A DNA stretch of 63,865 bases, the filler included, from Stramenopiles sp. TOSAG23-2 (lineage: Eukaryota): NCBI GenBank assembly GCA_900128395.1. It is 27 parts of 27 records of this genome, joined end to end, with 100 filler letters (N's around TTAATTAATTAA, not from the genome) between each part and the next. Parts side by side here need not be neighbours in the genome. Positions count along the whole stretch, not along the records: positions 45,110 to 47,371 come from LT651888.1; 26 more parts are not named here. The stretch is one strand, 5' to 3'. Position numbers and translations under genes: made by a program. A model generated the notes under the pieces. It searched no databases. It was given only the letters and a program-made list of their open reading frames with translations, and had not been told where the DNA came from. Below, in pieces: positions 5,189-61,513 of the stretch (its first letter is position 1; every line of letters starts with the position of its first letter).

Positions 5189-6936
5189 ATGTCTTCCTTT
5201 TCTACTAGTAGTAACGATAATCATAATGCAAATTTCAATAATAAATTTGTGCCATTACTATATAAAAAACGTGAGTTGAAATCAAAAGATGTACGTAAAC
5301 ACCTAGAAGGAATTAGATTAACAAAGGAACATTATGATACCTTAGTCAATTCTGATTGTAATTTTTATGATGAAGAAACTGGAGCTTTGATTTTCAAATT
5401 TAGAACAAATAGAATTCAACATGAAAATATTCGAATTGCAAAAGCATGCTTTGGTACCATAGATACTAAAATGAAAATGTCTAAAACCAGAGGAGCAGCT
5501 GCAGGGAAAATTGTTAAGAAGAAATTATTAAAAAAACGTTTAAATTTACGGAAAGAAATAGAAGAAGTCCAACAAGTTTCTAATGGATTTGGATATATAA
5601 AATATAAAATTGATGTCTCGAAATTAATTGATTATTCTATACGAGATAGATTCCCTGGGGAAACAATTGGAGAAGAAAAAATATTTCAAAAAAATGGTAA
5701 AGCAATGAAATATTCATGGACTTCATCATCATCATCATCTAATTCTAATACTGGTAAATGGGTAGAACTTGAAGAGCAATGAAATATTCATGGACTTCAT
5801 CATCATCATCATCTGATTCTAATACTGGTAAATGGGTAGAACTTGAAGAGGTTACTAGTCAAATTACAAACAAACAAAAAACTTCAAATCCAGTCCGTTC
5901 ATACAAAGCTGGTTGGTATTATGATATGTATTTAAAATCAAATCGAAAATGGGGATTTTCAAAGGAATATCCACGTACATGGGAACGAGCTGCTCCATTT
6001 TTTGAAGATATTAATCATCAGTTTGAAAAAATATTACCAGAGGTTCATAAAGTACATACAGAAAGATTATTATGCCACAGTGACACAGTGGTTGCAAATG
6101 ATGTAGCTTTATCATCTTGCAGCATTAATGTCAATTATTCATCATTTTGCCACATGGATAGAGGTGACCTTAGGGATGGTTTTAGCACTTTAACAGTTAT
6201 TCAAATTGGAGAATATGAAGGTGGACTTTTTGTTATACCTGAATATAGAATTGCAATTGATGTACGGGAGGGCGATATATTGTTTTGCCAAAGTCATAAA
6301 TTATGGCATGGGAATACGAAAATTAAATCAATAAAAGGTGGAAAACGAATATCATTTGTTACATATTTAAAAGAAGCCTTGATACGAGGTACAATCGAAA
6401 TGTTAAAAACCCAAAGAAGAGAAGGTCTCATATTACAGAAAACTAAGAGTGGTGAAATCGATGATAATTTTATATTTCAAGCGAATCGTTTATCAGGTCC
6501 TAGACGAGTCTTCTATTCACCTTACAAAATTGGCATTGAACATAAAGAATTAGTATCGCCAACAACTGTTAAAAGAAAAAGTCATCCTCGCAATCATTTG
6601 AAACGGAAACGATATAAAAATGATAAAAAAAAAGAAAAAAGGCAAATAAAATTGTTTGATACGTATATAGGTGAACATGCACAAATTTTATTTCAACGAA
6701 AATGGTGGGATGTCACAGTTATGGAATATAATAAATCAAAACAGTGGCACAATGTTGTATTTTGGACAGATCAAGACACGATGCCTGTATGTATTGACCA
6801 GGAACTGGCTAACGGTTCATTTAGATTTGTCAAGCAGAAAGACAACAACAACAGCAACACCGCAGCAGGTGCACGAAGATACATATTTGACAGTTACAGA
6901 GAGATTGTGAAGAAGAAAGTACGCGTATCGTATTAA
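5189..6936 (+). CDS. TET/JBP-family 2OG-Fe(II) dioxygenase with C-terminal Tudor-like domain, split by a 74-bp tandem duplication
   Basis: SINVNYSSFCHMDRGD (HxD, 6151-6159), YEGGLFVIPEYRIAIDVREGDILF, LWHGNT (6307) and KRISFVTY (R, 6346). N-terminal LIFKFR and TRGAAAG. Removing one duplicate copy gives a single ~557-aa ORF. Confidence 0.82.
5701..5850 (+). repeat. 74-bp tandem duplication that frameshifts the TET/JBP gene
   Basis: agcaatgaaatattcatgg...gaacttgaag at 5701 and 5775, differing by one substitution (aat/gat). Confidence 0.95.
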
Positions 6937-7151: not shown

Positions 7152-9431
7152 GGACAAGGGCGTACAAATGAAAAGTTTTTATCTGATACAAATCATGATT
7201 GTAAGAATTGTCCTAGTGGTACGTATTCCCGTACAAATTCATATGATGTATGCTATACTGCAGATCCTCCAAAAGAAGTTATTGTAGTTGGCAATCCTGG
7301 TAATGATGTTAAATGCGCCCCCGGTTATTGCAGTATTAATAGTAAGGTTGCGACCCTTCATCCAGATGATTTTGATAAAGATGACAAGTACATTCCTGGT
7401 CAATGTGTTATATGTACGTGTAAATGTGACAATGGAGAGGCGGCTAAGGGAACTGATTGTCCAAAAATTGGTGAGCATAAATGTATGAAATGTAAAGCTG
7501 ATTATGGTATACTTAAGAGAGCTGGAGATAAAGCATCTTATACATGTAAAAAATGTAACCCCGGTTCAATACCAAATGACGTTGTAGTTCATGGATATCA
7601 TACTGGTCATTGTGTATGTAAGAAAGGTTACGGTAATACAAAACGAGAAAAAACTGCGAATGGTAGATGGTGTGAAACGTGTGAAACGGGAAAATTTAGT
7701 GACTTTAAAGACGATACAAGATGTCGCGTACATATGACATGTCCAATTGGACAAGGTCGTGTAAGTGAAAGTGGGAAATTAGATAATGACAAAAATCTTG
7801 AGGATGAATGTAAAAATTGTGTAAGTGGTACGTACTCGTCTGTATCATCGCATGATACATGTTTCGATGCGCCTCCAAGTGTAGAAGCTGAGATAATACC
7901 ATTCCATGGTCCAGGCAGAGGCGTACGTTGTATCGATGGATATGAAAGTACTATTACAAAAAGTAGAGATGTTAGATATGATGGAAATGGTAAATATATT
8001 AAAAACCAGTGTAAACCAAAAAAATGCATTTGTCCAGAAGGTGGGACAGGATCAACATTGAAACAATGTCCAAAACACCACGATACATGTTGCATATCAT
8101 GCAAAGAAGATCAAGGATATCATTTAACAACAAATACACGTAATGAACCAGTATGTGAGCTACGCAAATGCACATGTAGGAATGGTGACGATCCGCATGG
8201 AGTCAATTGTCCAAAAAATTATAATGGAAAGATGTACTGTTCAAGCAAGCTGAAATGTGATGATGGATATTACTTTAAAAACAATGCATGTCACCTGAAA
8301 ATATGCGAGTGTACAAATGGAAAAAGAGCCACGGGAACTGAATGCAATAAACATGGTGATTTTAAATGTATTGCGTGTGAGGATGGTTATGGTTTTGGGA
8401 ATAGTCGGGAACTTCTTATTAATAACGTTAAAAAGGAAAAAGCATACATATGTGAAGAGTGTAAAGATGGTTCAATACCAAATGACGTTGTAGTTCATGG
8501 ATATCATACTGGTCATTGTGTATGTAAGAAAGGTTATGGTAATACAAAACGAGAAAAAACTGCGAATGGTATATGGTGTGAAGCGTGTGAAACGGGAAAA
8601 TTTAGTGACTTTAAAGACGATACAAGATGTCGCGTACATATGAAATGTCCAATTGGACAAGGTCGTGCAAATACGAAATTTTCATCTGTCGTGTGAAACG
8701 GGAAAATTTAGTGACTTTAAAGACGATACAAGATGTCGCGTACATATGAAATGTCCAATTGGACAAGGTCGTGTAAGTGAAAGTGGGAAATTAGATAATG
8801 ACAAAAATCTTGAACACGAATGTTTTAAATGTCCCATTGGTTCATACTCGTCTGTAGCATCACATGATGAATGTTTCAGTGTTCCAACAGGGACCATTGC
8901 GTCGCCCAACCCTAGACTGACTGGAAATACTGGTGTAAAGTGCAAGGACGGATATATAAGTGATTCTACTGGAAATAATCATGGTGAGGTTCGTGTAAGC
9001 GATTACGATAATAATGGTTTATTTATTGGCACATGTCGTCCAAAAAAGTGTAAATGCAGAAATGGAAACTACAAGCTAGTAGGTGAACCGGCAATTGGAA
9101 TTGAGTGTCCTATCGATGGACAAAACACATGTCTATATTGCAAGCCTGGTTATGTATTGAAAAATGGACACTGCATAGAATGCAAACCTAATAGTAATAC
9201 TTTGGAAACTGTTACAAAACATAAAGAACATGAATGTTTATGTAACATTGGGTACGGCAAAGCATCTATCAAATCGTCTAATGCTTTCGATGGATCTTCC
9301 TGTATTGCATGTCCATCCGGAAAATTTAGCACAAGTCTTTCTAGTCAACCATGTCAAAACCACAGTCCATGTCCAATAGGACAAGGGCGTACAAATGAAA
9401 AGTTTTTATCTGATACAAATCATGATTGTAA
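7152..9431 (+). CDS. Large Cys-rich repeat (TNFR/EGF/GCC2-GCC3-like) surface protein, internal fragment, frameshifted near 8668-8690
   Basis: Frame open from 7152 to 8696 and continuing in another frame to the contig end. Repeated CxxCxxGKFS and CPIGQGR units. Internal duplications 7563-7770/8469-8667 and 8585-8667/8691-8773. Confidence 0.8.
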
Positions 9432-9620: not shown

Positions 9621-11423
9621 ATGGTCATAACTGATACCGTAGAAAAAGAAAATGAATTGGAGAAATGGAGAAATAACCCAAAAAATTGGTTGCCAAGTAA
9701 TTCAACAATTGCCAATAATCATAATGTATCATCATATCATAAACCTTCCAAAAAAAAAGATGTCACGGATAATGTAAAAAATGATTTGAAGACAAACATG
9801 ATACATACAATGATATCTGACGCAAAAAGAACAGGAAATTTTTTTGAAATAGGTTTGGAAGAAAAATTGAAAAAGCAATTTATTTTAGAAGAAAGGAATT
9901 CAAAGTTTGCATTAGCTTTATTTGATAAAGCAGAGAAAAGAAGAGCTTTTAGAATTCAGAATGGATGGGATGAAAGAGAGAAACATGGTATGAAAAGTGG
10001 TGATTTGATACGATATGCATCAACATTTACAACAGAAGATTTCCAAGAAGATTTCATGGAAACCGAGACAAACATAATTAATGCGATAGTAGCAAAGGCA
10101 AAAAGTACAGGCAATTTCTTTGAAGTAGGATTAAAAGAAAAATTGGCAAACTTTTTTAAAAGCTTTATTTCATCCCTTGGACACGAAAAAGAAGGAAAGG
10201 ATTTAGAATTTGCATTTACTTTACTCGATAATGCCGAGAGAAGAAAAAGAGTGAGAATCACAAATGGTTGGGCTGAACGCGTTCAAGAAGGTATGGGAAG
10301 TGTAGATCTTGTACGATATGGAAAGACGTTTACTATGGAAGATTTTCAAAAAGAAATTGACGAAAAAGCATTGAAAAATTACGAATTGTTCTATGAACTC
10401 CCAGAAGGTAGTGCGAAGCTGAAGGAAGTGAAATCTAGTAGTGCTGGCATCGCCGGTTGGGCGAAATATTTATCTTATGCAGCAGAACTCTCAAAAGAAT
10501 CTGTGAAAGAAGAGATCCTACAAAAAAACGAAAATGTACTGCAAGATTGTGAAAATTTGATTGCTTTATGCAATCCAATGTATAAAGAGACTTTAATAAC
10601 AGCCGACAGCGACAGCGTTGATTTTGATAAGTTTAAGAAATCTTTCTTCTCAGACGAAGAAGAAGAAGATGAGTTGGATACTGAATCAATATTTATAGAA
10701 CCATGTCACTCTGAAGCAAAAACACAAACAAGAATTGGAAGATTCATTGTAACAAGTCCAAAAGAGGAACATGATTTAACAATGGTAAAACCATGGTTTG
10801 ATGAACAGATTCTTCCACAATTTACAAAAGAGTCGTATCCAAGTTGGAATTGGGTTTTGGATGTAGCTGAAAGTAGATTTTTAAAAGGAATGACAAGGAA
10901 CAATAGTTGGGAACAAAATATGATGTTACATGATACTCTTCTAAAACTTTTTAAGGCTGGAAGAGATAAAGTTCGGTTTGAAGTATCAAAACAATACGAA
11001 TGTAAGCAATGCGAAAAAAGAGAAAATGTAAGCAAGGTAAGCCGACGAGGCTTAAAAGACCACGTGATAGACAAAGATGGCAAGAAAGATTGTAATTCAT
11101 ATGATCAAGCGAGATGCAAATATGAACACAATAATGAACAGCAAATACCAAGACATATTCTTGCTTTTCAAATGGGACTTGTTTTCCTTCTTTTCTTTAT
11201 GGAATTTGGCTTTTGGTCATATGCAATTGGTTTCATTTCAATGTTTCTTACTGCGCTTTTGTTTTGCACGGGCATTGTTGCAAGAGGTTTTGGTTTGCTC
11301 ATGATAGCAAAAGGAATGCTTTATGTAGGACGTGGATTTCTTTTACTTGCATCAAGTCATGTGCCTACCATGGTCAATTATCGCAATCAATATATGGATA
11401 GTGGTAGTCATGGAGGACGTTGA
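9621..11423 (+). CDS. Hypothetical protein with two ~90-aa internal repeats and a C-terminal membrane anchor
   Basis: 600-aa ORF. AKRTGNFFEIGL...NGW.ER...DLIRY..TFT.EDFQ occurs twice. Hydrophobic C-terminus. Confidence 0.75.
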   Translation: MVITDTVEKENELEKWRNNPKNWLPSNSTIANNHNVSSYHKPSKKKDVTDNVKNDLKTNMIHTMISDAKRTGNFFEIGLEEKLKKQFILEERNSKFALALFDKAEKRRAFRIQNGWDEREKHGMKSGDLIRYASTFTTEDFQEDFMETETNIINAIVAKAKSTGNFFEVGLKEKLANFFKSFISSLGHEKEGKDLEFAFTLLDNAERRKRVRITNGWAERVQEGMGSVDLVRYGKTFTMEDFQKEIDEKALKNYELFYELPEGSAKLKEVKSSSAGIAGWAKYLSYAAELSKESVKEEILQKNENVLQDCENLIALCNPMYKETLITADSDSVDFDKFKKSFFSDEEEEDELDTESIFIEPCHSEAKTQTRIGRFIVTSPKEEHDLTMVKPWFDEQILPQFTKESYPSWNWVLDVAESRFLKGMTRNNSWEQNMMLHDTLLKLFKAGRDKVRFEVSKQYECKQCEKRENVSKVSRRGLKDHVIDKDGKKDCNSYDQARCKYEHNNEQQIPRHILAFQMGLVFLLFFMEFGFWSYAIGFISMFLTALLFCTGIVARGFGLLMIAKGMLYVGRGFLLLASSHVPTMVNYRNQYMDSGSHGGR

Positions 11424-12447: not shown

Positions 12448-14191
12448 TTAACAGCCACCATGGCGCTGAGTCAACAACCTCCTCCTGCTAAGCTTCATAT
12501 CGTTTATGTCGTAATCCGCACCGGTAACTACAACTTCTTTTTCATACTTCTTCCCTCCTTTATCTTTTAGCCTTTTTAGAGTACAGTCGCATTCCTTGTA
12601 ATCCACGGCATCGAGACAACAATTTTCTTCATCTACATATACCTTCACATTCACAGTCGAACCAATCATATATTTTCTTCTTTTGCAATAAGGCAATTCG
12701 CTTAGCAAATAACCATCTTCTTCTGTATTTAACTTGATAACGGCAACCCAGTCCTTCGTATTGCCCAATGCATCCATATCTACTTGTTGGATAGATATAT
12801 CTTCCGCATGGAACAAGTGAGAAGGACAAGATTTATCTTCAACATCGTACCGTAATTTCTTTTTCAGATGTAACATTTTTGCATCTGTGTGTGGTATGTC
12901 ATTTAGGTAATAGATGGCAATATTCTTTATGGTGGTATCACTTAAGTCCACGTGATTGTACCCCTTACAAAACATGCCTTTCTTCTTTTTCAACTCTGTC
13001 GCTCCATAATTTTGACCATGGCATTTACTAGCACCAGCCGCCTTCTTCTGCATGGTCCCTACCATGTTGAGATTCTTTCCCACACGATACTGGCGCTTAC
13101 GAAAGGACCCTTCCATTGTCTCCAAAAAGGATGTCTGTGGCAGCATAGGTGTCGCATACATATCTTCGATCATATTGTAAAATTGTGTCATTGTATGCTG
13201 GTAAGGTATGAAGAGTTCGCACATTTTCTTCTCGTCTTTTCTAGGTGATTTAATAATACGTGGTCCACATAAAGATACATCCGTGAAAAAATCGTTCACC
13301 AACGTTTGTATGTGTTTTTTTTTTGATAAAGGGATGGAATGCAATGAACGAATTAAATTACCAATACCCTTATGTAAATACCCATCTACCTTCAATGCCT
13401 CGGTTACTTCTACATACAAATTGTGCCGACTGTAATTACCACCTTGAGACAAGGCAAATGGAATAATCTTCTCACGAGATACTATATCGTGTGGGTCCTC
13501 ACAAGCTTCTAAGGTATTGTCTCGTCTCTCTTTACAACATATATTTGGAAAAAATGATTTTGCCTCTTTATCCACGTTTTGTATTTGAAATAAATTGTCT
13601 AGATCCATTCTAAAGCTACAAAACGATTTCAGTAATTCATCTCGATTGGTATCGAGGCAGGTGGTATCTTCTACATCCTCTATTTCATTCGATACTTCTA
13701 TGGCTGGAAATACAGTGATACCTCTTGTACGCTCGTCTTTACAATAGGTTTTCTCGTTTCTGTTATCCGTAGCTTTACGAGCTGCCATTTCGTTATCCCA
13801 TTTCATACGTGTTTGTTCTTTTGCCCATAAACGTGAGTTTTTGATGGACAAATCGTTCTGTTTCTCTTTTTGGGCTTCTAATTTCTTCCCAAATTCAGCG
13901 ATCAGGTTCTCGACATATGAAAACTTACAACGAGTAAATTCATCAACCGGTTCTCCACCAGTAGGACACTTCGCGCATTTTCCGTCGACACTGCCTTTGG
14001 ACACTTCTCGGTACCCACAACGATGGCAATATGTCCCCAAACCATTGTTTTGATACCCATGAGGACAATCGTCAAATTGAAATGGTTTTTTTCCATTGGA
14101 CTGTCCATTACCATCATAACCAAAACACTCAATGGCACCCACCGACGTTACGCCACAGGTATGAGATCCACCAGCGCTTACTTGAACAAAC
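12448..14191 (-). CDS. Cys-rich secreted/surface protein with an RCC1/BLIP-II-like repeat, 5' partial
   Basis: Frame open to the contig edge: FVQVSAGGSHTCGVTSVGAIECFGYDGNGQS (RCC1-type). Followed by Cys modules and a coiled coil, ending RRRLLTQRHGGC. Confidence 0.7.
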
Positions 14192-45109: not shown

Positions 45110-46467
45110 AGTTCTTGAAATAACGTTGCATAAAATATTGTAAAAACACCTTGTCCAACACCATACAAATACTTTTTAAACCATGATATTTCAATATCTG
45201 TACCACTATATACTTTTTCAACAAATTTGTTTAACAATTCCATTGCATTTTCAGGAATATTTTTCATTAATGCATGTGCTTGATATACTTCCAAACGACT
45301 TCGGTCAGATGGTAAATTTTCCACGAATTTTTTCGCTGTTTCATAGGTAGCAAAATGCTGAGTAAAATCGTCTTCGGTTTTTATACGTTGCATAGCGACG
45401 TCTAAATTTTTGTTGCTCGTTTTCGATACCAATGTGTACATAGCAAGTGTACATATACAAATTTCTTTCATTTTCACCATTTGCATTTCTTTCGTTGGAT
45501 AAAATTTATATATCAAAAGTACTAAACATTTAAATTGGTCGCGATCCTGTTGTTTGAAAAATTTAACTCGTCGATTTTCTAATGCTTTTATGAATTTGTT
45601 ATCACTGTTGTATATCCCTGAAATATTGTCAAAAAAATCATAAAACAATTGGAAACGCGATTCCTTCATTGAATCTTTTTCTTGAATTCTTGCCAATCGT
45701 TGTTTACGTGGTCCTATTCCTTCCTTTCGAATACCACCTAATGCTTTTCCTTTCTGTACCCTTTGTTGTTCAATATATTTTAAAATTTTCAAATCTAAAT
45801 GGGGTTTTTGTAATAACAGAACCGTATTCGTTTGGGCGTTTAATGTGAAAAAATTTCTATAACACACATCCTGTAATTTCTCATATTGACCAGTTCTTAT
45901 TATCATTCCAGTAGTGGCATGTACAAATTTTCCAAAGTTACCAATTACAATCATAAGATCTGTGGTCCATTGATATACTGTGTATCCATCGATACCACCA
46001 GATTCGAAAAAATAAAACAAATTCATATTATTTTTTTTCAATTTACCAGACGAAATCCACAATTGGCATCCAATGTTTGAATCGTATATATTCATTTGCT
46101 TAATACCTGGTGCATTGTTGCCATCAAAATGCCAAAATGCACAATTGAATTTCACGTTACCATTTGGTGACAAAGCTTTAAGAATCATTTTTCGTGTGCC
46201 AAACTTGGACAAAATAGCTCGCACGTTAGTCCACCATGGTCGGGACGTGTGTAACTTTATAGAATTAATATTTGGTGCCCTCAATTGCCGCTGTAGCTCC
46301 TTTCCAGTGTTTTGTAGGCCTTGGTATAAAGAACGTAAATTCCCCCCAAATAATACTAAACGATAGTACATACGAATATAAGACACATACATGTCTTTCA
46401 TGTGAATGAAGCATTGTTTGTATAGATCGCATATATTTTTAACCGTATTTGTACGCATATGGGGCAT
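45110..46467 (-). CDS. Putative divergent TET/JBP-like dioxygenase fused to an HhH-GPD (EndoIII/Nth-like) domain; 3' partial, start uncertain
   Basis: RPWWTNVRAIL...CAFWHFDGNN (HxD, 46123-46131), FVHATT (45919) and YRNFFTL (45856). C-terminal LVSKTSNKNLDVAMQRI...VYSGTDI...LYGVGQG. Confidence 0.55.
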
Positions 46468-47192
46468 AGTTAGCAATGAAATACTTGTATAGTTGTACTG
46501 CAATGTTTATTATTTCAATTATATAATATTTTTATTCTTTATTCATCAAATAATCTAGACGTTCATGTGTTCTATAATTTAATGCAGTATATATATATAT
46601 TAAATTTTCATTTATTTGTTTTTTTAAAACAATCTCATAGCTGAAACAAAAAAAATGATTCGTTTAACTGAGCTATACAATGCTATTTCAATAGTGACAC
46701 TTTGAACCACATTGAACCTGTAACTACAAATATAGACACTAGTAATATTTTTAAGGCAATGCTAAGCATCTAATTTCGTCTGGATCGATATTTGTATATA
46801 TCGATCCAAGATATAATGCTATTTCAATAATACTGGATTATGTTAGAAGACATAGATCTTCCTTTTGGCCAGATCCTTAATAAAAATGTGTGTTGATAGC
46901 AGTTGGAGTATTAAGACTACTATACAAAATTCATATCATGCATTAAAAAATGTCCAAAAAATCATGTTAACATCGGATTAGGATGTGACGGGGTTTTTTT
47001 TTTCCAACACCATATTTCACGATGATTTTCTAGAAATGATTTATTGGTATTAATTGATTTATGAAAATTTAATATTAAATTAATAATAATATATACCATT
47101 TAAGAAACATATAAATACATCAAGAAGAGAGATATACATATATATAATAATAATATATATAAGGAAATATATATATATATATATATTTTCTT

Positions 47193-47225
<33 letters not shown>

Positions 47226-47246
47226 ACCATATATATATATAAAATC

Positions 47247-47371
47247 ATGGCATCCCTTACAACCAATCCACCACATGAGAAACGACGACGATTAAAACGA
47301 TCCACGATTGAAGCGTTAGAAGAAGAACGTGCGGAACCTATTGAAATTGGTATATTAGTTTTACCAGCTGG
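47247..47371 (+). CDS. N-terminus of a multicopy NLS-bearing protein (paralog of 23585)
   Basis: MASLTTNPPHEKRRRLKRSTIEALEEERAEPIEIGILVLPA, open at the contig end. Confidence 0.7.
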
Positions 47372-47471: not shown

Positions 47472-49731
47472 CAATAGATGCTATGAATGATTTGTTTTTT
47501 GGTAATAGTGTGCAGCAACAAGCTCCTTCAACGACAGCGCAGGATGCTGTAGTTGAAGAAGAAGAGGAAGAAGATGATGATGATAATGAAGCAGCTGCAT
47601 TGACAATGGCGCTTGCAATGTCGGTCAATTTGAATTCTGATCCAAACATAGCAAATATTTCAAGGACAAATGCTGTGCCTGTAACCGAGACTGAACAGTC
47701 AGTCATGGCCGCTGATGACGAGCAGAAGAAAGGAGAATCATCAAAAATGCAAGTTGGTAGTAATAATACCGTTTTGCAAGATACTGAGGAAAATGATTTT
47801 CGAAAACCGTCGGTGTTAATCGAGTTAATTGATACCGTAAAGGCTAATTCATCTATTGAAGCAGCTGCGTCATGCTCAATAATACAGTTAGTAAAACTTT
47901 TAGCTTCTAATGGATATTCGTTTAAAAATTCAAAAGTAGATCCATCTTCGTTAGTCGGAAAATTAAGGGCGTTGCTTGCACAAATTTTGCGCGGCGAAGT
48001 TAGTAATAATATCAAAGGTTGTGAGAAACCGTTGTCGCGTCTTTTGGTGGAAGAATGCATTACACATTTAATCCAATCGACGCAGCAAGGGAAAAAAGCA
48101 ACAAAAAAATTTGAGTCTCTTCATCCATACTACCAACAAAGCGATTATGGTGGTTCGGTAGGATTTCCAGAGGCAAGGGCCCTGCGTGTAACTTTCCATC
48201 CACAATGTGCAACACAATCACGTGATGCTAGTGCCCTGAAATTTTATTCTGATGAAAATTGCACCCATCAAATTGCTACGTTCTCTGGCAGAACCGGTTG
48301 GCGACCATTCATCGTTGAGGCGGGTAAAGTATATTTTAAATTTTCATCACGGGCTAACGAGGGTAATTATTGGGGTTATCAATTTGAAGTAGCCCCGATC
48401 AATGGTTTGCAATGGGTCAACGAGAAAGAAGTTTTTCATGAAGCATCTTTGGAATGGGCATGCTATGTGTTAGATTTTTTACTGAAAGAAGGACTCGAGT
48501 TGGGCATTGGTGCAGCCGCGCACAAGCCGCAGATTTTTAACGCGTTAGTGCAATATTTATGTTTTCCTGGTGTACCATATAAACGGAAAGTGGTTTCATT
48601 GTTGCTACAATTGTTGCAATCCCCTGAGCTTTTTCCTGAAGGCGAAAGACCAGACCTTGATAGTTTAAAGGGTGTAGGTGCTTTAGTAGTAGAAAGATGT
48701 AAGGCTACCAGCAATTTTAAAGATGCCATGGCACCATCAGCATTGCAGGCTTTAGTAGAGCTTGAAGCAACTAGAAGAAAAGTTGTAAAATATTATTTAG
48801 ATATTGATAAGAACAAAGCTGATACAGGGAAGAAAACTGATGTAGATGCAAACAACAATGGCACGCCTCTTGAAGCTCCTCCAAAATCTGAACAAGAACA
48901 ACTTGCCGATGTTGTATTGAAAAATTTCTCAAAACTTGATCCACCATTCACTCTAAAGCCCGTTGTAGAAAAAACACTGAAAGACAGCGATGCCCCCGAC
49001 GGTATGTTGGAGTTGATGGAATTGATGCAAACATTTCATAGTAGGGAACGGTTTTCTGATGAATTTTACTCCGAGGCATTACTTCAATCAAGGTTGACGA
49101 AAGTCGTTGAAAGCGATCATCCGCATAAGCCCGGAACGACATCGGGTGAAATGAAGTTCATTGGCGCATCAAAGTTAGAAATTGTTTACGATGCCCGTTG
49201 TAGATTGCCTAGGGGATCTTTATTTGAATTACAATATCGTAAATTAGTAAAAAAAGCAGATGGAACAACTTCCGGAGAATGGAAAAAGGCAAATTCAAAT
49301 TACAAAGATAATGTTCAGCAAGTTATAGAGACGGACATGATTAAGTGGAAGATTGTATCCAATACAAGGCCTTCAGATGCACGTTGGGGTATACGAATGC
49401 TTATTCATGCAATAAATGTGGATCCAACTAAAATAAATATCGTATTAAAAGATCACGGTAAAAATGATGTTGAAAACAAAAATGCCATTGAGGGAGATTT
49501 ACTCGATTTGACCACAACGTGGGATCGAAGGGCTGATTTGCGATTGACACAATGGATAAATGGTGCTGCTGATACTGCATCATATAATTCCCCATCCATA
49601 GTTGGATCATTGTACTTGGCTCCACAAGATATTAGACTTAGTAAAAACGAATTGGTGCGGCTAACGGAACTAAACTCGCGGTCTCAGAAGCAGCTAAGCT
49701 TGAGATACTGTTTGCTTAGAAATTTTAACAG
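47472..49731 (+). CDS. Internal fragment of a giant protein with UIM-like and CUB-like domains, probably a HECT E3 ubiquitin ligase
   Basis: LTMALAMS (UIM-like) and two ES.HP...F..A..L...F/Y...C...WG..F CUB-like units. The HECT domain is not in the contig. Confidence 0.6.
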
Positions 49732-59650: not shown

Positions 59651-61513
59651 ATGAAATATGTTACAGATTCTATAAACATAATTAAGCAAAATAAATTATT
59701 TTTACAAAAAACATATCAATTGTTAAGCGGTGCACACTCTCGTCTAAGATTTGGTGAATACCACTATGAAAATGAGAATAATGATATTTTATGTAAACCA
59801 TGTTGTGTGAAGGAAGCCAGTTTAACGCGTGCAAAACGTGAGGATCGATCTGCATCAGCTGTAAGCAAATTGAAACATGAAAGTAAAGTACTCCATATGT
59901 TGAAAGATCATCCAAACATTGTATCATCCTATGGTATATGTGAAAAATATGTCGATACTAATACTAGTAATAATAATGATAAGAATCATAAAAACAAAGA
60001 AGATATCTTTTTTCAATTAATTATGCAAAAATGTCACGGAACAACTTTATCAAAGGCGATTGCAAACGAATTATTGTCTTTAGATATGCGTATTAGATGG
60101 TTATACGAGATTGCTGATGCAATGAATTATGTACATAGTTGTAATATCATACATCGTGACTTAAAACCAAATAATGTCGTTTTAAATAATATATCATCTG
60201 CAGTAAAGTTGATAGATTTTGATGCAAGTTATATTTTAAAAAAAGAAGACAGAATAAATAATGAATTAATTGGTACATTGCAATATATGTCGCCAGAAAT
60301 GTTAAGTGGCTCTGATTATGGTAAACCTACTGATGTTTATTCATATGGAATCTTGATGTATGAGATTATTGAAAGACAAAATGCGTATTATGGTAAAATA
60401 AATGCAATGCCTGATAATGATTCTATGACAAGATATGATTTTAAACATGCAGTGATCAATCATAATTTAAGACCAACAACTTTAGATGAAGTGAATAATA
60501 ATAACAATCATGAAATTTATGAACTTATGTTTCAGTGTTGGGAAAAAGATGAAGTGAATCGACCCACTTTTAATGATATATGTTTTAAATTGAAAAACAT
60601 TCTAGTAGAAAATTTTGGCAACTCATCTGATAGTTCTATAAGTCATCATTTTTCGTATGGGATATCATCAAATATAGGTCGTCGTAAAAATATGGAAGAT
60701 CAATTACTATGCGTCGTAAATAACAAGACAAATTCTTCATTAGCCGCAGTATTTGATGGTCATGGTGGATCAGATATTAGTTTATATGTAAAAGAAAAAA
60801 TGCATGAATATTTTATTCATAATGATAACAACCCATATCAAAGAAATAGCCTTTTTGATATTTTATCATCAATAGAAAATGATGTACAACAAAANNNNNN
60901 NNNNNNNNNNNNNNNNNNNNNNNNNNNNNNNNNNNNNNNNNNNNNNNNNNNNNNNNNNNNNNNNNNNNNNNNNNNNNNNNNNNNNNNNNNNNNNNNNNNN
61001 NNNNNNNNNAAAATGATGTACAACAAAAAAAAAACAAGCTGGCACAGAATCAGGGCACAACTGCATCTTGTATTATTGTTGATGACAATTATATTCAAAT
61101 AGCCAATCTGGGTGATTCGGATATTATATTGTGTGAAAAAAAATGTAACGATGATGTTGATAATAATAATGATAGATGCTACAATATTAAAGTAATGTCA
61201 AAAAAACATGCACCAGATGAAAAGGCTGAAGAAGAGCGTATAATGGAATATGGCGGTACGATCAAACGAATGGTGCGTATACAAGATGATGGAAATGAAT
61301 ATCCTTTCGGTCCTTCTCGTATCTATGTAAGTAAAGAATCAAAAGTTGGGTTAGCAGTTAGTAGAGCTATTGGTGATTTATCTTTCAGACCGTATATTTC
61401 AAGTGTACCATCTACGAAAATGATAAAAAGAAAGCATGACAAGCAATTATTTATGATTATTGCAAGTGATGGTATTTGGGACGTCTTAACTCACAGTGAG
61501 GCATGTGAAATTG
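59651..61513 (+). CDS. TKL-like protein kinase fused to a PP2C phosphatase, 3' partial, with an internal scaffold gap
   Basis: Kinase motifs HPNIV, HRDLKPNN, DFD, GTLQYMSPE and DVYSYG. PP2C motifs GRRKNMED, VFDGHGG, GTTA, ANLGDS, LAVSRAIGD and ASDGIWDV. Gap at 60895-61009. Confidence 0.88.

Follow-up and report, generated by a model that had tools for sequence, protein, structure and literature searches.

A repeated stramenopile gene possibly joining a TET/JBP-like oxidase to a relative of phage thymidine-hypermodification transferases

Introduction

The closest described counterparts of the gene analyzed here are the thymine-hypermodification systems of phages. In these systems, a TET/JBP dioxygenase makes 5-hydroxymethyluracil (5hmU), a kinase phosphorylates it and an aGPT-Pplase2 transferase displaces the phosphate with an amine (PMC8989533, PMC13229309, PMC13458397). 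Phage TET_JBP genes adjoin the genes for aGPT-Pplase2 and the 5-hydroxymethyl-deoxyuridine (5-hmdU) kinase (PMC8989533, PMC13229309, PMC11955845). Indeed, ParB, TET-like, aGPT-Pplase2 and kinase genes stand side by side in the genome of Rhodococcus phage Tonitrus, with TET_JBP, aGPT-Pplase2 and 5-hmdU kinase among genes 3, 6 and 7. The aGPT-Pplase clan comprises helical, helix-hairpin-helix, "DNA-glycosylase-like" enzymes (PMC8989533). Its members flip 5-hydroxymethyl-dU out of the DNA and use a Glu-x3-Cys motif. Here, we describe a gene on the minus strand of positions 45110 to 46467 in a 63,865-nucleotide stretch of DNA (hereafter the window) from Stramenopiles sp. TOSAG23-2 (assembly GCA_900128395.1, contig LT651888.1). 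We tentatively read its product as a TET/JBP-like oxidase fused to a Pplase-clan domain and acting on thymine in DNA.

In the available parts of PMC8989533, PMC13229309 and PMC13458397, the route by dioxygenase or hydroxymethylase, kinase and Pplase2 transferase is described only for phages, and eukaryotes appear only through JBP and base J and through dinoflagellate 5hmU (the latter also in PMC11572971). The accessible literature naming aGPT-Pplase likewise showed no eukaryotic member; the family-defining work of Iyer et al. 2013 may mention one. Four families serve for comparison below. ADDT/AADT/DADT (aGPT-Pplase clade 2, PF18724) includes M6 gp51, the YuA Pplase2 (PDB 25qc) and the PaMx11 glycinyltransferase (PDB 8z2m). 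HMUDK_hel (PF18723), formerly aGPT-Pplase clade 1, is represented by M6 gp55, which was dispensable for transfer in lysate assays according to PMC8989533. TET/JBP (PF12851) includes Tonitrus gp3, Prochlorococcus phage P-HS2 gp36, trypanosome JBP1/2 and metazoan TET. Finally, endonuclease III (EndoIII, Nth) and MutY share PF00730.

Results

The gene and its product

The minus-strand frame opens with an ATG at 46467, preceded by an in-frame TTG at 46503, and stays open for 452 codons until it runs off the contig at 45110 without reaching a stop; an earlier note on this DNA was thus right that the contig ends within the gene. In DNA of about 30% GC, where approximately 8% of random codons are stops, a frame of this length has a chance probability of 6.6e-17. 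Over 195 codons shared with a metagenomic copy (L001), we counted nine synonymous and seven non-synonymous differences, and the resulting ratio of non-synonymous to synonymous polymorphism (pN/pS) of 0.19 indicates a protein under constraint. The frame is therefore a real gene. It holds amino acids (aa) 1 to 452 of a product of about 644 residues, whose full length is known from the near-identical copies P0013 and P0002: an alignment of the window protein (P0001) with P0013 spans 644 columns. Neither half of the protein is placed in a family by an accepted significance threshold, and only the gene's own fragments and one paralogue are detectable as relatives.

A candidate Pplase-clan domain in the C-terminal half

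An all-helical C-terminal domain begins at aa 271, and its first two thirds (aa 271 to 452, 45112..45657, minus strand) lie in the window. We searched ESM-Atlas with aa 95 to 400 of P0013. The best matches (0.89 to 0.86) were clusters of ADDT (PF18724), HMUDK_hel (PF18723) and aGPT-Pplase3 (PF18746), the top value being "a lead only" by the tool's own calibration, and all ten best named matches fell within one family or clan. The domain was then compared with references built from M6 gp51 (ADDT), M6 gp55 (HMUDK_hel), 120 ADDT homologues and 79 IMG/VR loci, plus seven diverse ADDT proteins, down to 22% identity, among them PhiW-14 gp109 and the Acinetobacter phage 15599 enzyme. As decoys, 4,306 open reading frames (ORFs) from phage loci were clustered into 58 family alignments.

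Using hhalign, HMUDK_hel ranked first (score 21.4, P 0.03) and ADDT second (19.8, P 0.05) among the 60 profiles. With that many profiles tested none of the scores is significant, and a P of 0.03 would be insufficient alone; it counts here because both families had been named beforehand by an independent method, ESM-Atlas. The diverse ADDT alignment scored 20.6 (P 0.039), a value reached by one of 100 shuffles, and the N-terminal domain used as a control scored 13.1. With hmmsearch --max, shuffled sequences reached the real score in 126 of 3,000 cases for HMUDK_hel, 229 of 3,000 for ADDT and 925 of 3,000 for the TET control. A phmmer search of the domains against 4,427 phage-locus ORFs and TET proteins returned a spurious ORF at the top and an HMUDK_hel member second (E 0.51), with six HMUDK_hel members in the top 50, none of them significant. 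Weak scores are what a distant member would be expected to give, since true relatives score weakly with the same thin profiles: hhalign of ADDT against HMUDK_hel, two true paralogous families, yields no more than Prob 28% and P 6e-4, and TET against AlkB, true members of one superfamily, only P 0.23.

Every best local alignment fell on a single motif, pairing PNKFTALDVENALCKF with QEVETVLCKW in ADDT or with PNRFEMRDIEHSLCEF in HMUDK_hel (eight identities in 16). In Pplase2, this motif supplies the metal-binding Glu-Thr as well as the catalytic Cys, which in the phage 15599 enzyme are E222, T223 and C226 (PMC13458397; mutagenesis also in PMC8989533). The numbering agrees with the sequence of that enzyme. 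The pattern [DE][VIL]E..LC, whose degeneracy was chosen after the sequence had been seen, is present in 74 of the 76 ADDT and 39 of the 63 HMUDK_hel proteins, against 10 of 4,167 other ORFs. The candidate motif of the stramenopile gene, DVENALCKF (aa 543 to 551), lies past the contig end and is seen in other copies only; within it, E545-N-A-L-C549 keeps the Glu and the Cys.

The likeness to ADDT extends to the overall architecture, an all-helical domain of about 300 aa with an acidic-V-E-x-x-L-C-K-[FW] motif near its C-terminal end. Weaker collinear matches, of low posterior probability, pair SDNKFIKAL with DLDPIYTAL, QFKCLVLLIYKFY with QLCRWLLGYWCYY, RGYMPAFK with NGFGPWIGFK and DFMIK with VFMFK, and include the patterns Q[FL]..[LW].L.Y..[FY]Y, G....FK and FM[FI]K. 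In the hhalign posterior alignment, D289 (the Asp of SDN in GIYNSDNKFIKAL, 45580..45618, minus strand) is a weak candidate for the metal-binding Asp of the Pplase2 DxDPxY motif, which is D25 in the 15599 enzyme. Against HMUDK_hel, GICGSIRGY aligned to the family's GPGAIRGL, with a score that is not significant and no Pfam match. The counterpart of the helix-hairpin-helix may be the GVG at aa 436 to 438 or RGYMPAFK past the contig end. Unlike ADDT, the domain is about 40 to 70 aa longer between the two motifs (256 against 186 to 219 aa), belongs to a eukaryote, is fused to a second domain and has no known adjacent kinase. On these comparisons we infer a distant relationship between the C-terminal helical domain and the phage aGPT-Pplase clan.

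The same C-terminal motif also drew a repeated weak Pfam match (E 0.1 to 0.4) to the C-terminal end of the archaeal family DUF2115 (PF09888). This match fell on KFTALDVENALCKFCVAL in copies P0002, P0006, P0014, P0015 and P0004 (aa 540 to 557 of the full length).

TET/JBP-type motifs in the N-terminal half

A beta-rich region (aa 100 to 215, 45823..46170, minus strand) is the candidate double-stranded beta-helix domain of an Fe(II)/2-oxoglutarate dioxygenase, as judged from motifs and hhalign. The strings quoted in the earlier note are all present on the minus strand where it placed them. CAFWHFDGNN (aa 109 to 118, 46114-46143) contains H113-F-D115 (46123..46131), a candidate iron-binding HxD that hhalign pairs with the HRD of phage TET-like proteins. 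FVHATT (aa 181 to 186, 45910..45927) is paired with LVHGVTP of that set and contains H183 (45919-45921), the candidate third iron ligand, 70 aa from H113. RNFFTL (aa 204 to 209, 45841..45858), 21 aa past H183, is preceded by Y203 and begins with R204, the candidate 2-oxoglutarate-binding Arg; Y203 and the adjoining R204 are paired with GYR of the phage set. The context H113-x-D115 plus VH183ATT of an iron triad is thus present at the level of motifs.

Our reference for phage TET-like proteins was Tonitrus gp3, which Pfam Tet_JBP scores at 32.2 bits, just below the cut-off, together with 120 homologues (121 proteins). A homologue from the AT-rich Prochlorococcus phage P-HS2 was also collected. 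In that genome (L204), positions 5983-6768 encode a TET/JBP-like protein that is 25% identical to Tonitrus gp3 and annotated as hypothetical; a pairwise search of the gene's two domains against this protein and its annotated neighbors gave no similarity.

A loose HxD...H...R pattern is uninformative, arising in 6,590 of 100,000 shuffles and in 667 of the 4,306 unrelated phage-locus ORFs. HxD followed by [LIVF]H[GA][VT]T is far more restrictive (four of 100,000 shuffles, two of 4,306 unrelated ORFs, 116 of the 121 phage TET-like proteins), and adding [YF]R leaves no shuffle among 100,000 and one unrelated ORF while retaining the 116 family proteins; the classes [GA][VT] in these counts were widened post hoc to take in the HATT of the window, the phage set having HGVT. 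The motifs of the window had themselves first been picked by scanning all 64 kb of it. Even so, the motif context appears to exceed what chance readily gives.

The best hhalign local match falls on the HxD, pairing FWHFDGNNAPGIKQMNIY with PYHRDNFNFKTWSAMPVI (FWHFDGNN against PYHRDNFN), and in the posterior alignment H113, D115, N118, H183, T186 and Y203 fall on family columns of at least 90% conservation. In a block-chain motif test, a method of low power that misplaced blocks, the TET profile ranked first of 56, with 54 of 1,000 shuffles ranked lower (P 0.054). As in TET/JBP proteins, the order is HxD, G.QL, VH[GA][VT]T and YR within a beta-rich stretch of about 115 aa. Unlike in the phage set, there are about 20 more residues between the HxD and the distal His and about six more between that His and the Arg (21 against about 15), and the conserved P[RK]KP..RR of the set has no clear counterpart in the window protein. 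Moreover, Phe stands two residues after the Arg, where TET proteins have Ser. Judged by the shared motifs, the N-terminal beta-rich domain would be a divergent Fe(II)/2-oxoglutarate dioxygenase of the TET/JBP (5-methylpyrimidine oxidase) kind.

Copies, constraint and occurrence

A word-indexed search of 5.8 billion proteins recovered one relative, P0002, among 3,175 candidates. It is identical to the window protein at 225 of 227 overlapping residues and extends 192 residues further. Twenty-seven proteins of various origins make up its 90% cluster; among them are a Tara Oceans record and two gene models that belong to a single EukProt data set. After the helical domain, the protein ends in an acidic/basic tail closing with KKRRF...KKAKNK, which looks like a nuclear-localization signal. 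Several copies break from the window sequence after aa 98, 117, 168, 203 or 312, some in a frameshift-like manner, and have different flanks. The metagenome contig L001 carries aa 118 to 312 at 97% nucleotide identity, and its break points lack GT..AG. Introns were rejected as an explanation of the copy break points, given that the L001 boundaries are without splice signals, and we therefore read the copies as truncated, decayed or rearranged members of a dispersed multi-copy gene. The sole copy found by the metagenome scan is a truncated one of 1,051 bp. At positions 632-1051 of L001, the truncated gene copy borders a long ORF of the other strand that is unrelated to it.

Two paralogue fragments, P0020 and P0026, are about 60% identical over aa 292 to 369, with KEICICTL and YKFYPTK conserved. 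Their upstream sequence differs, and the helical domain may thus also exist without the N-terminal domain. No copy turned up in a scan of IMG/VR with P0001, and tblastn of P0013 against 50,697 phage records gave no match at E<=10.

Parts of the stretch were contained in 20 of 24 listed public runs (12 studies), all labeled marine, seawater or aquatic apart from the best holder, whose label is a code. Of four runs examined, two are DNA runs that cover most of the gene. The other two, RNA libraries from two studies, yielded one contig each, without differences to 45338-45573 and 45224-45464, respectively. The gene is probably expressed: these contigs are compatible with transcription, and carry-over of DNA is possible. 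Gene depth in two marine DNA runs was about 5 to 15, where contig-summed depth gives no copy number and uncovered parts are uninformative.

Points against the assignment of the two halves

A number of results weigh against placing the two halves in these families. None of Pfam, NCBIfam or PHROGs gave a Tet_JBP, 2OG-FeII (2-oxoglutarate/Fe(II) oxygenase), ADDT, HMUDK_hel or HhH-GPD (helix-hairpin-helix glycosylase) match at E<=10, for the whole protein or its pieces; the only matches were at chance level (FadR_C, lipo_RadB and three unnamed phrogs), and the filters of HMMER conceal most matches above an E of about 0.1. PF12851 in particular did not match the whole protein or any of four N-terminal pieces at E<=10. 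Sequence searches of the PDB with single sequences and with the family profile found no match, in a copy that includes the Pplase2 structures 25qc and 8z2m. When the full-length profile was run exhaustively with HMMER against 1.84 billion representatives, 12 matches came back, all of them fragments of the gene itself or of the paralogue at about 60% identity. AlphaFold2 models of aa 1 to 452 (a two-row alignment) and of the C-terminal 419 aa (16 rows) had predicted local distance difference test (pLDDT) values of 31.4 and 35.9, respectively. Both are unusable, and we attribute the low confidence to the shallowness of the alignments.

Motif-level comparisons add to this. DxDPxY is found in nine of nine diverse ADDT proteins and is reduced here to SDNKF. 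The RR-containing motif of the same nine proteins (R..ERR..R in eight, KARR in the ninth) has no collinear counterpart: the stretch aligned to it is LPSDRSRLEVY, and ENRRVKFF exists out of order. The Thr of the catalytic Glu-Thr is replaced by Asn, at a position where HMUDK_hel has His. In a conserved-column test, the real count was reached by 17 of 60 shuffles for ADDT, 12 of 60 for HMUDK_hel and 19 of 60 for TET. The block-chain test placed ADDT outside the top eight of 56 and HMUDK_hel sixth, with a spurious antisense-ORF family at the top. For the N-terminal part, hhalign of aa 1 to 230 with the phage TET-like profile gave scores of 16.6 to 18.2 (P 0.08 to 0.14, rank 5 of 60). The TET/JBP half of the earlier proposal is partly supported: its motif set is present and rare by chance, and no profile score is significant. 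A local hidden Markov model of the 121 phage TET-like proteins gave no score in HMMER, ESM-Atlas returned no usable match for the N-terminal part, and phmmer with the N-terminal domain against the 4,427 phage-locus ORFs and TET proteins placed no TET protein in the top 25 and nothing at significance. For AlkB the profile score was 18.5 (P 0.051), from a match that is non-collinear with the HxD of AlkB itself. Finally, the protein contains no P-loop, and no kinase partner is known.

Alternative explanations

The main reading proposed in the earlier note was a one-polypeptide demethylase, with a TET/JBP oxidase in one part and, in the other, an EndoIII-like HhH-GPD glycosylase to remove the oxidized base. 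The resemblance to E. coli Nth lies in the order and spacing of LVSKTS..., VYSGTDI and LYGVG, which recall its residues at about 38, 98 and 114; the strings concerned are LVSKTSNKNLDVAMQRI (aa 346 to 362), VYSGTDI (aa 419 to 425) and LYGVGQGVFTIFYATLF (aa 434 to 450). The hairpin-like G436-V-G438 in LYGVGQGVF (45154..45162, minus strand) follows similarly spaced helices, and a C-x2-C-x5-C near the end of the domain, past the contig end and seen in other copies only, resembles the final three Cys of the cluster in Nth, CIARKPRCGSCIIEDLC. The Pplase clan itself is described as glycosylase-like in PMC8989533 and PMC13458397. Profile alignment did not reproduce the proposed Nth motif parallels. 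Against 32 Nth/MutY proteins (E. coli and 30 loci of 41 genomes), hhalign scored 17.7 (P 0.089), below both Pplase families, and the best local match (GIYNSDNKF with GLYNSKAEN) is out of order with the earlier motif map. PF00730 gave no match at E<=10 on P0001, P0002, P0014, P0006, P0015 or P0004, a negative that covers five C-terminal constructs. The note had correctly given Gly at the position of the lyase Lys (Gly440 in GVGQG) and had expected the catalytic Asp just past the contig end. From copies that are 99% identical over the overlap, the sequence past E452 reads LGFIKMNRGYMPAFKGICGSIRGYYFLVNGRAYPS..., with neither Asp nor Glu among the next 36 residues. Only at D489 does an acidic residue follow, 51 aa past G438 of the hairpin against about 20 expected for EndoIII; a Gly/Pro-rich stretch followed by TDFMIKI could hold it as a displaced "GPD" Asp. 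Three of the four cluster Cys are present, as CKFCVALRDC in 10 of 11 covering copies (P0013 has Ser at the second), and the Cys expected seven residues upstream is missing. We therefore do not assign the domain to HhH-GPD, given the profile, Asp, Lys and cluster results, and a glycosylase fusion of this kind seems very unlikely. The note's bracketed alternative, base hypermodification, fared somewhat differently: it is weakly favored by the Pplase-clan evidence, with no significant score, while the EndoIII glycosylase reading is unsupported.

Another possibility is a generic 2-oxoglutarate/Fe(II) dioxygenase, AlkB- or hydroxylase-like and acting on protein, RNA or a small molecule, joined to an unrelated helical domain with, for example, a targeting or regulatory role. 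An HxD...H...R arrangement with spacings of 70 and 21 aa would fit many such oxygenases, the AlkB and TET profiles score equally high, and the Phe after the Arg departs from TET. The non-collinear AlkB match argues the other way, as do the missing Pfam 2OG-FeII match, the specificity of VH[GA][VT]T plus YR for TET-like proteins (116 of 121 against one or two of 4,306) and a C-terminal lead that points to DNA-base chemistry; we consider this explanation distinctly improbable. A more serious rival, if still a doubtful one, is an orphan, lineage-specific repeated gene, perhaps within an unrecognized mobile element, that has neither fold and whose motif matches are coincidental. Such a gene would account for the absence of any family match in four libraries and the PDB, for the recovery of nothing beyond the gene's own fragments among the representatives, for hhalign P values that are all at least 0.03 across 60 families, for shuffles that nearly equal the real conserved-column counts and for an ESM-Atlas score rated as a lead. 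Its 27-member cluster, with differing flanks and break points, is typical of dispersed repeats, and the resemblances were picked by reading 64 kb. Coincidence sits less well with a tight TET motif set that is very rare by chance, or with a Pplase lead that came from an unbiased search and was then confirmed by a second method, in which its families took ranks one and two of 60 at the catalytic motif. Both leads, moreover, are to enzymes that cooperate in phages, the pN/pS speaks for constraint, and Pfam-type library searches found no transposase, integrase or reverse-transcriptase signature in the ORF. If the orphan-repeat explanation is true, the locus would be one more orphan repeated gene and a caution against motif calls made by eye.

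Proposed function

Each half yields one weak lead, independent of the other, and the two enzyme families indicated are neighbors in phage genomes, which is suggestive. It is on this convergence, and on the best match falling on a catalytic motif in each half, that we base our preference for a TET/JBP-like oxidase fused to a Pplase-clan domain and acting on DNA thymine, a reading we regard as possible and put slightly below an even chance. The protein would be a lineage-restricted, multi-copy product of about 644 aa in an AT-rich marine eukaryote, probably nuclear, with two enzyme-like halves separated by a basic linker. H113, D115 and H183 would bind iron and R204 would bind 2-oxoglutarate, and the N-terminal domain would hydroxylate the 5-methyl group of thymine (or of 5-methylcytosine) in DNA. 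The C-terminal domain, through its motif E545...C549, would then bind the 5hmU produced by the N-terminal domain or derivatize it further. For a transfer of the phage type a separate kinase would be required, and none is seen on the 2.26-kb contig; in the absence of a fused kinase, the C-terminal role could be transfer, base binding or even excision.

A stronger form of this proposal is that a widespread marine protist, or a mobile element in it, makes hypermodified thymine in its nuclear DNA with this single polypeptide. There, 5hmU would be made in situ and an amine or amino acid appended after a kinase acts in trans, or the base would be otherwise processed. We consider this stronger form unlikely. 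If true, it would give the transferases of phage thymidine hypermodification their first relative in eukaryotes, and eukaryotes a second route besides base J. Were the fused oxidase and Pplase-clan reading true, the gene would represent a phage-type system in fused form in a eukaryote. Such a union of the enzymes that open and close the phage route would hint at a DNA base so far unknown in an abundant marine protist, and the protein could offer a compact tool for site-specific DNA derivatization.

Other features of the gene, the contig and the window

Upstream of the beta-rich region, the N-terminal region (aa 1 to 99, 46171..46467, minus strand) is probably helical, judging from the low-confidence model only, and includes RPWWTNVRAIL (aa 76 to 86, 46210-46242). 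The linker between the two halves (aa 216 to 270, 45658..45822, minus strand) is basic and rich in Lys, Arg and Gln.

About 27 contigs of some 2.3 kb each, unrelated to one another, make up the window; they follow in descending length and are joined by spacers of the form N44-TTAATTAATTAA-N44, so that adjacency between contigs is artificial. One additional gap of 115 N lies at 60895-61009. The gene-bearing contig spans 45110-47371 (2.26 kb), and no RNA gene or tRNA (Rfam and tRNA scans) and no terminal repeat was recognized on it. The 5' flank of the gene on this contig (46468..47371) is AT-rich. Imperfect palindromes occur in an (AT)n-rich microsatellite at 47122-47243, between this flank and the next ORF, which starts at 47247 with MASLTTNPPHEKRRRLKRS... 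At the far end of the contig, the summed contig depth reached 2,175 and 638 in the last bin (47314-47371) of the two marine DNA runs in which the gene itself had a depth of about 5 to 15, and several different loose ends occur at 47304-47336. The segment 47304-47371, in the start of the ORF at 47247, is an element that is either widely conserved or highly repeated.

Elsewhere in the window, other contigs encode clearly eukaryotic domains, namely leucine-rich repeats with Notch LNR, PDZ, ephrin-receptor-like, protein kinase with PP2C, and carboxyltransferase. Four long intron-free ORFs of 403 to 749 aa have no Pfam match at E<=0.001 (47483-49729 and 9621-11420 on the plus strand, 12451-14142 on the minus strand and 7485-8693 on the plus strand), which suggests that this organism is rich in orphan genes.

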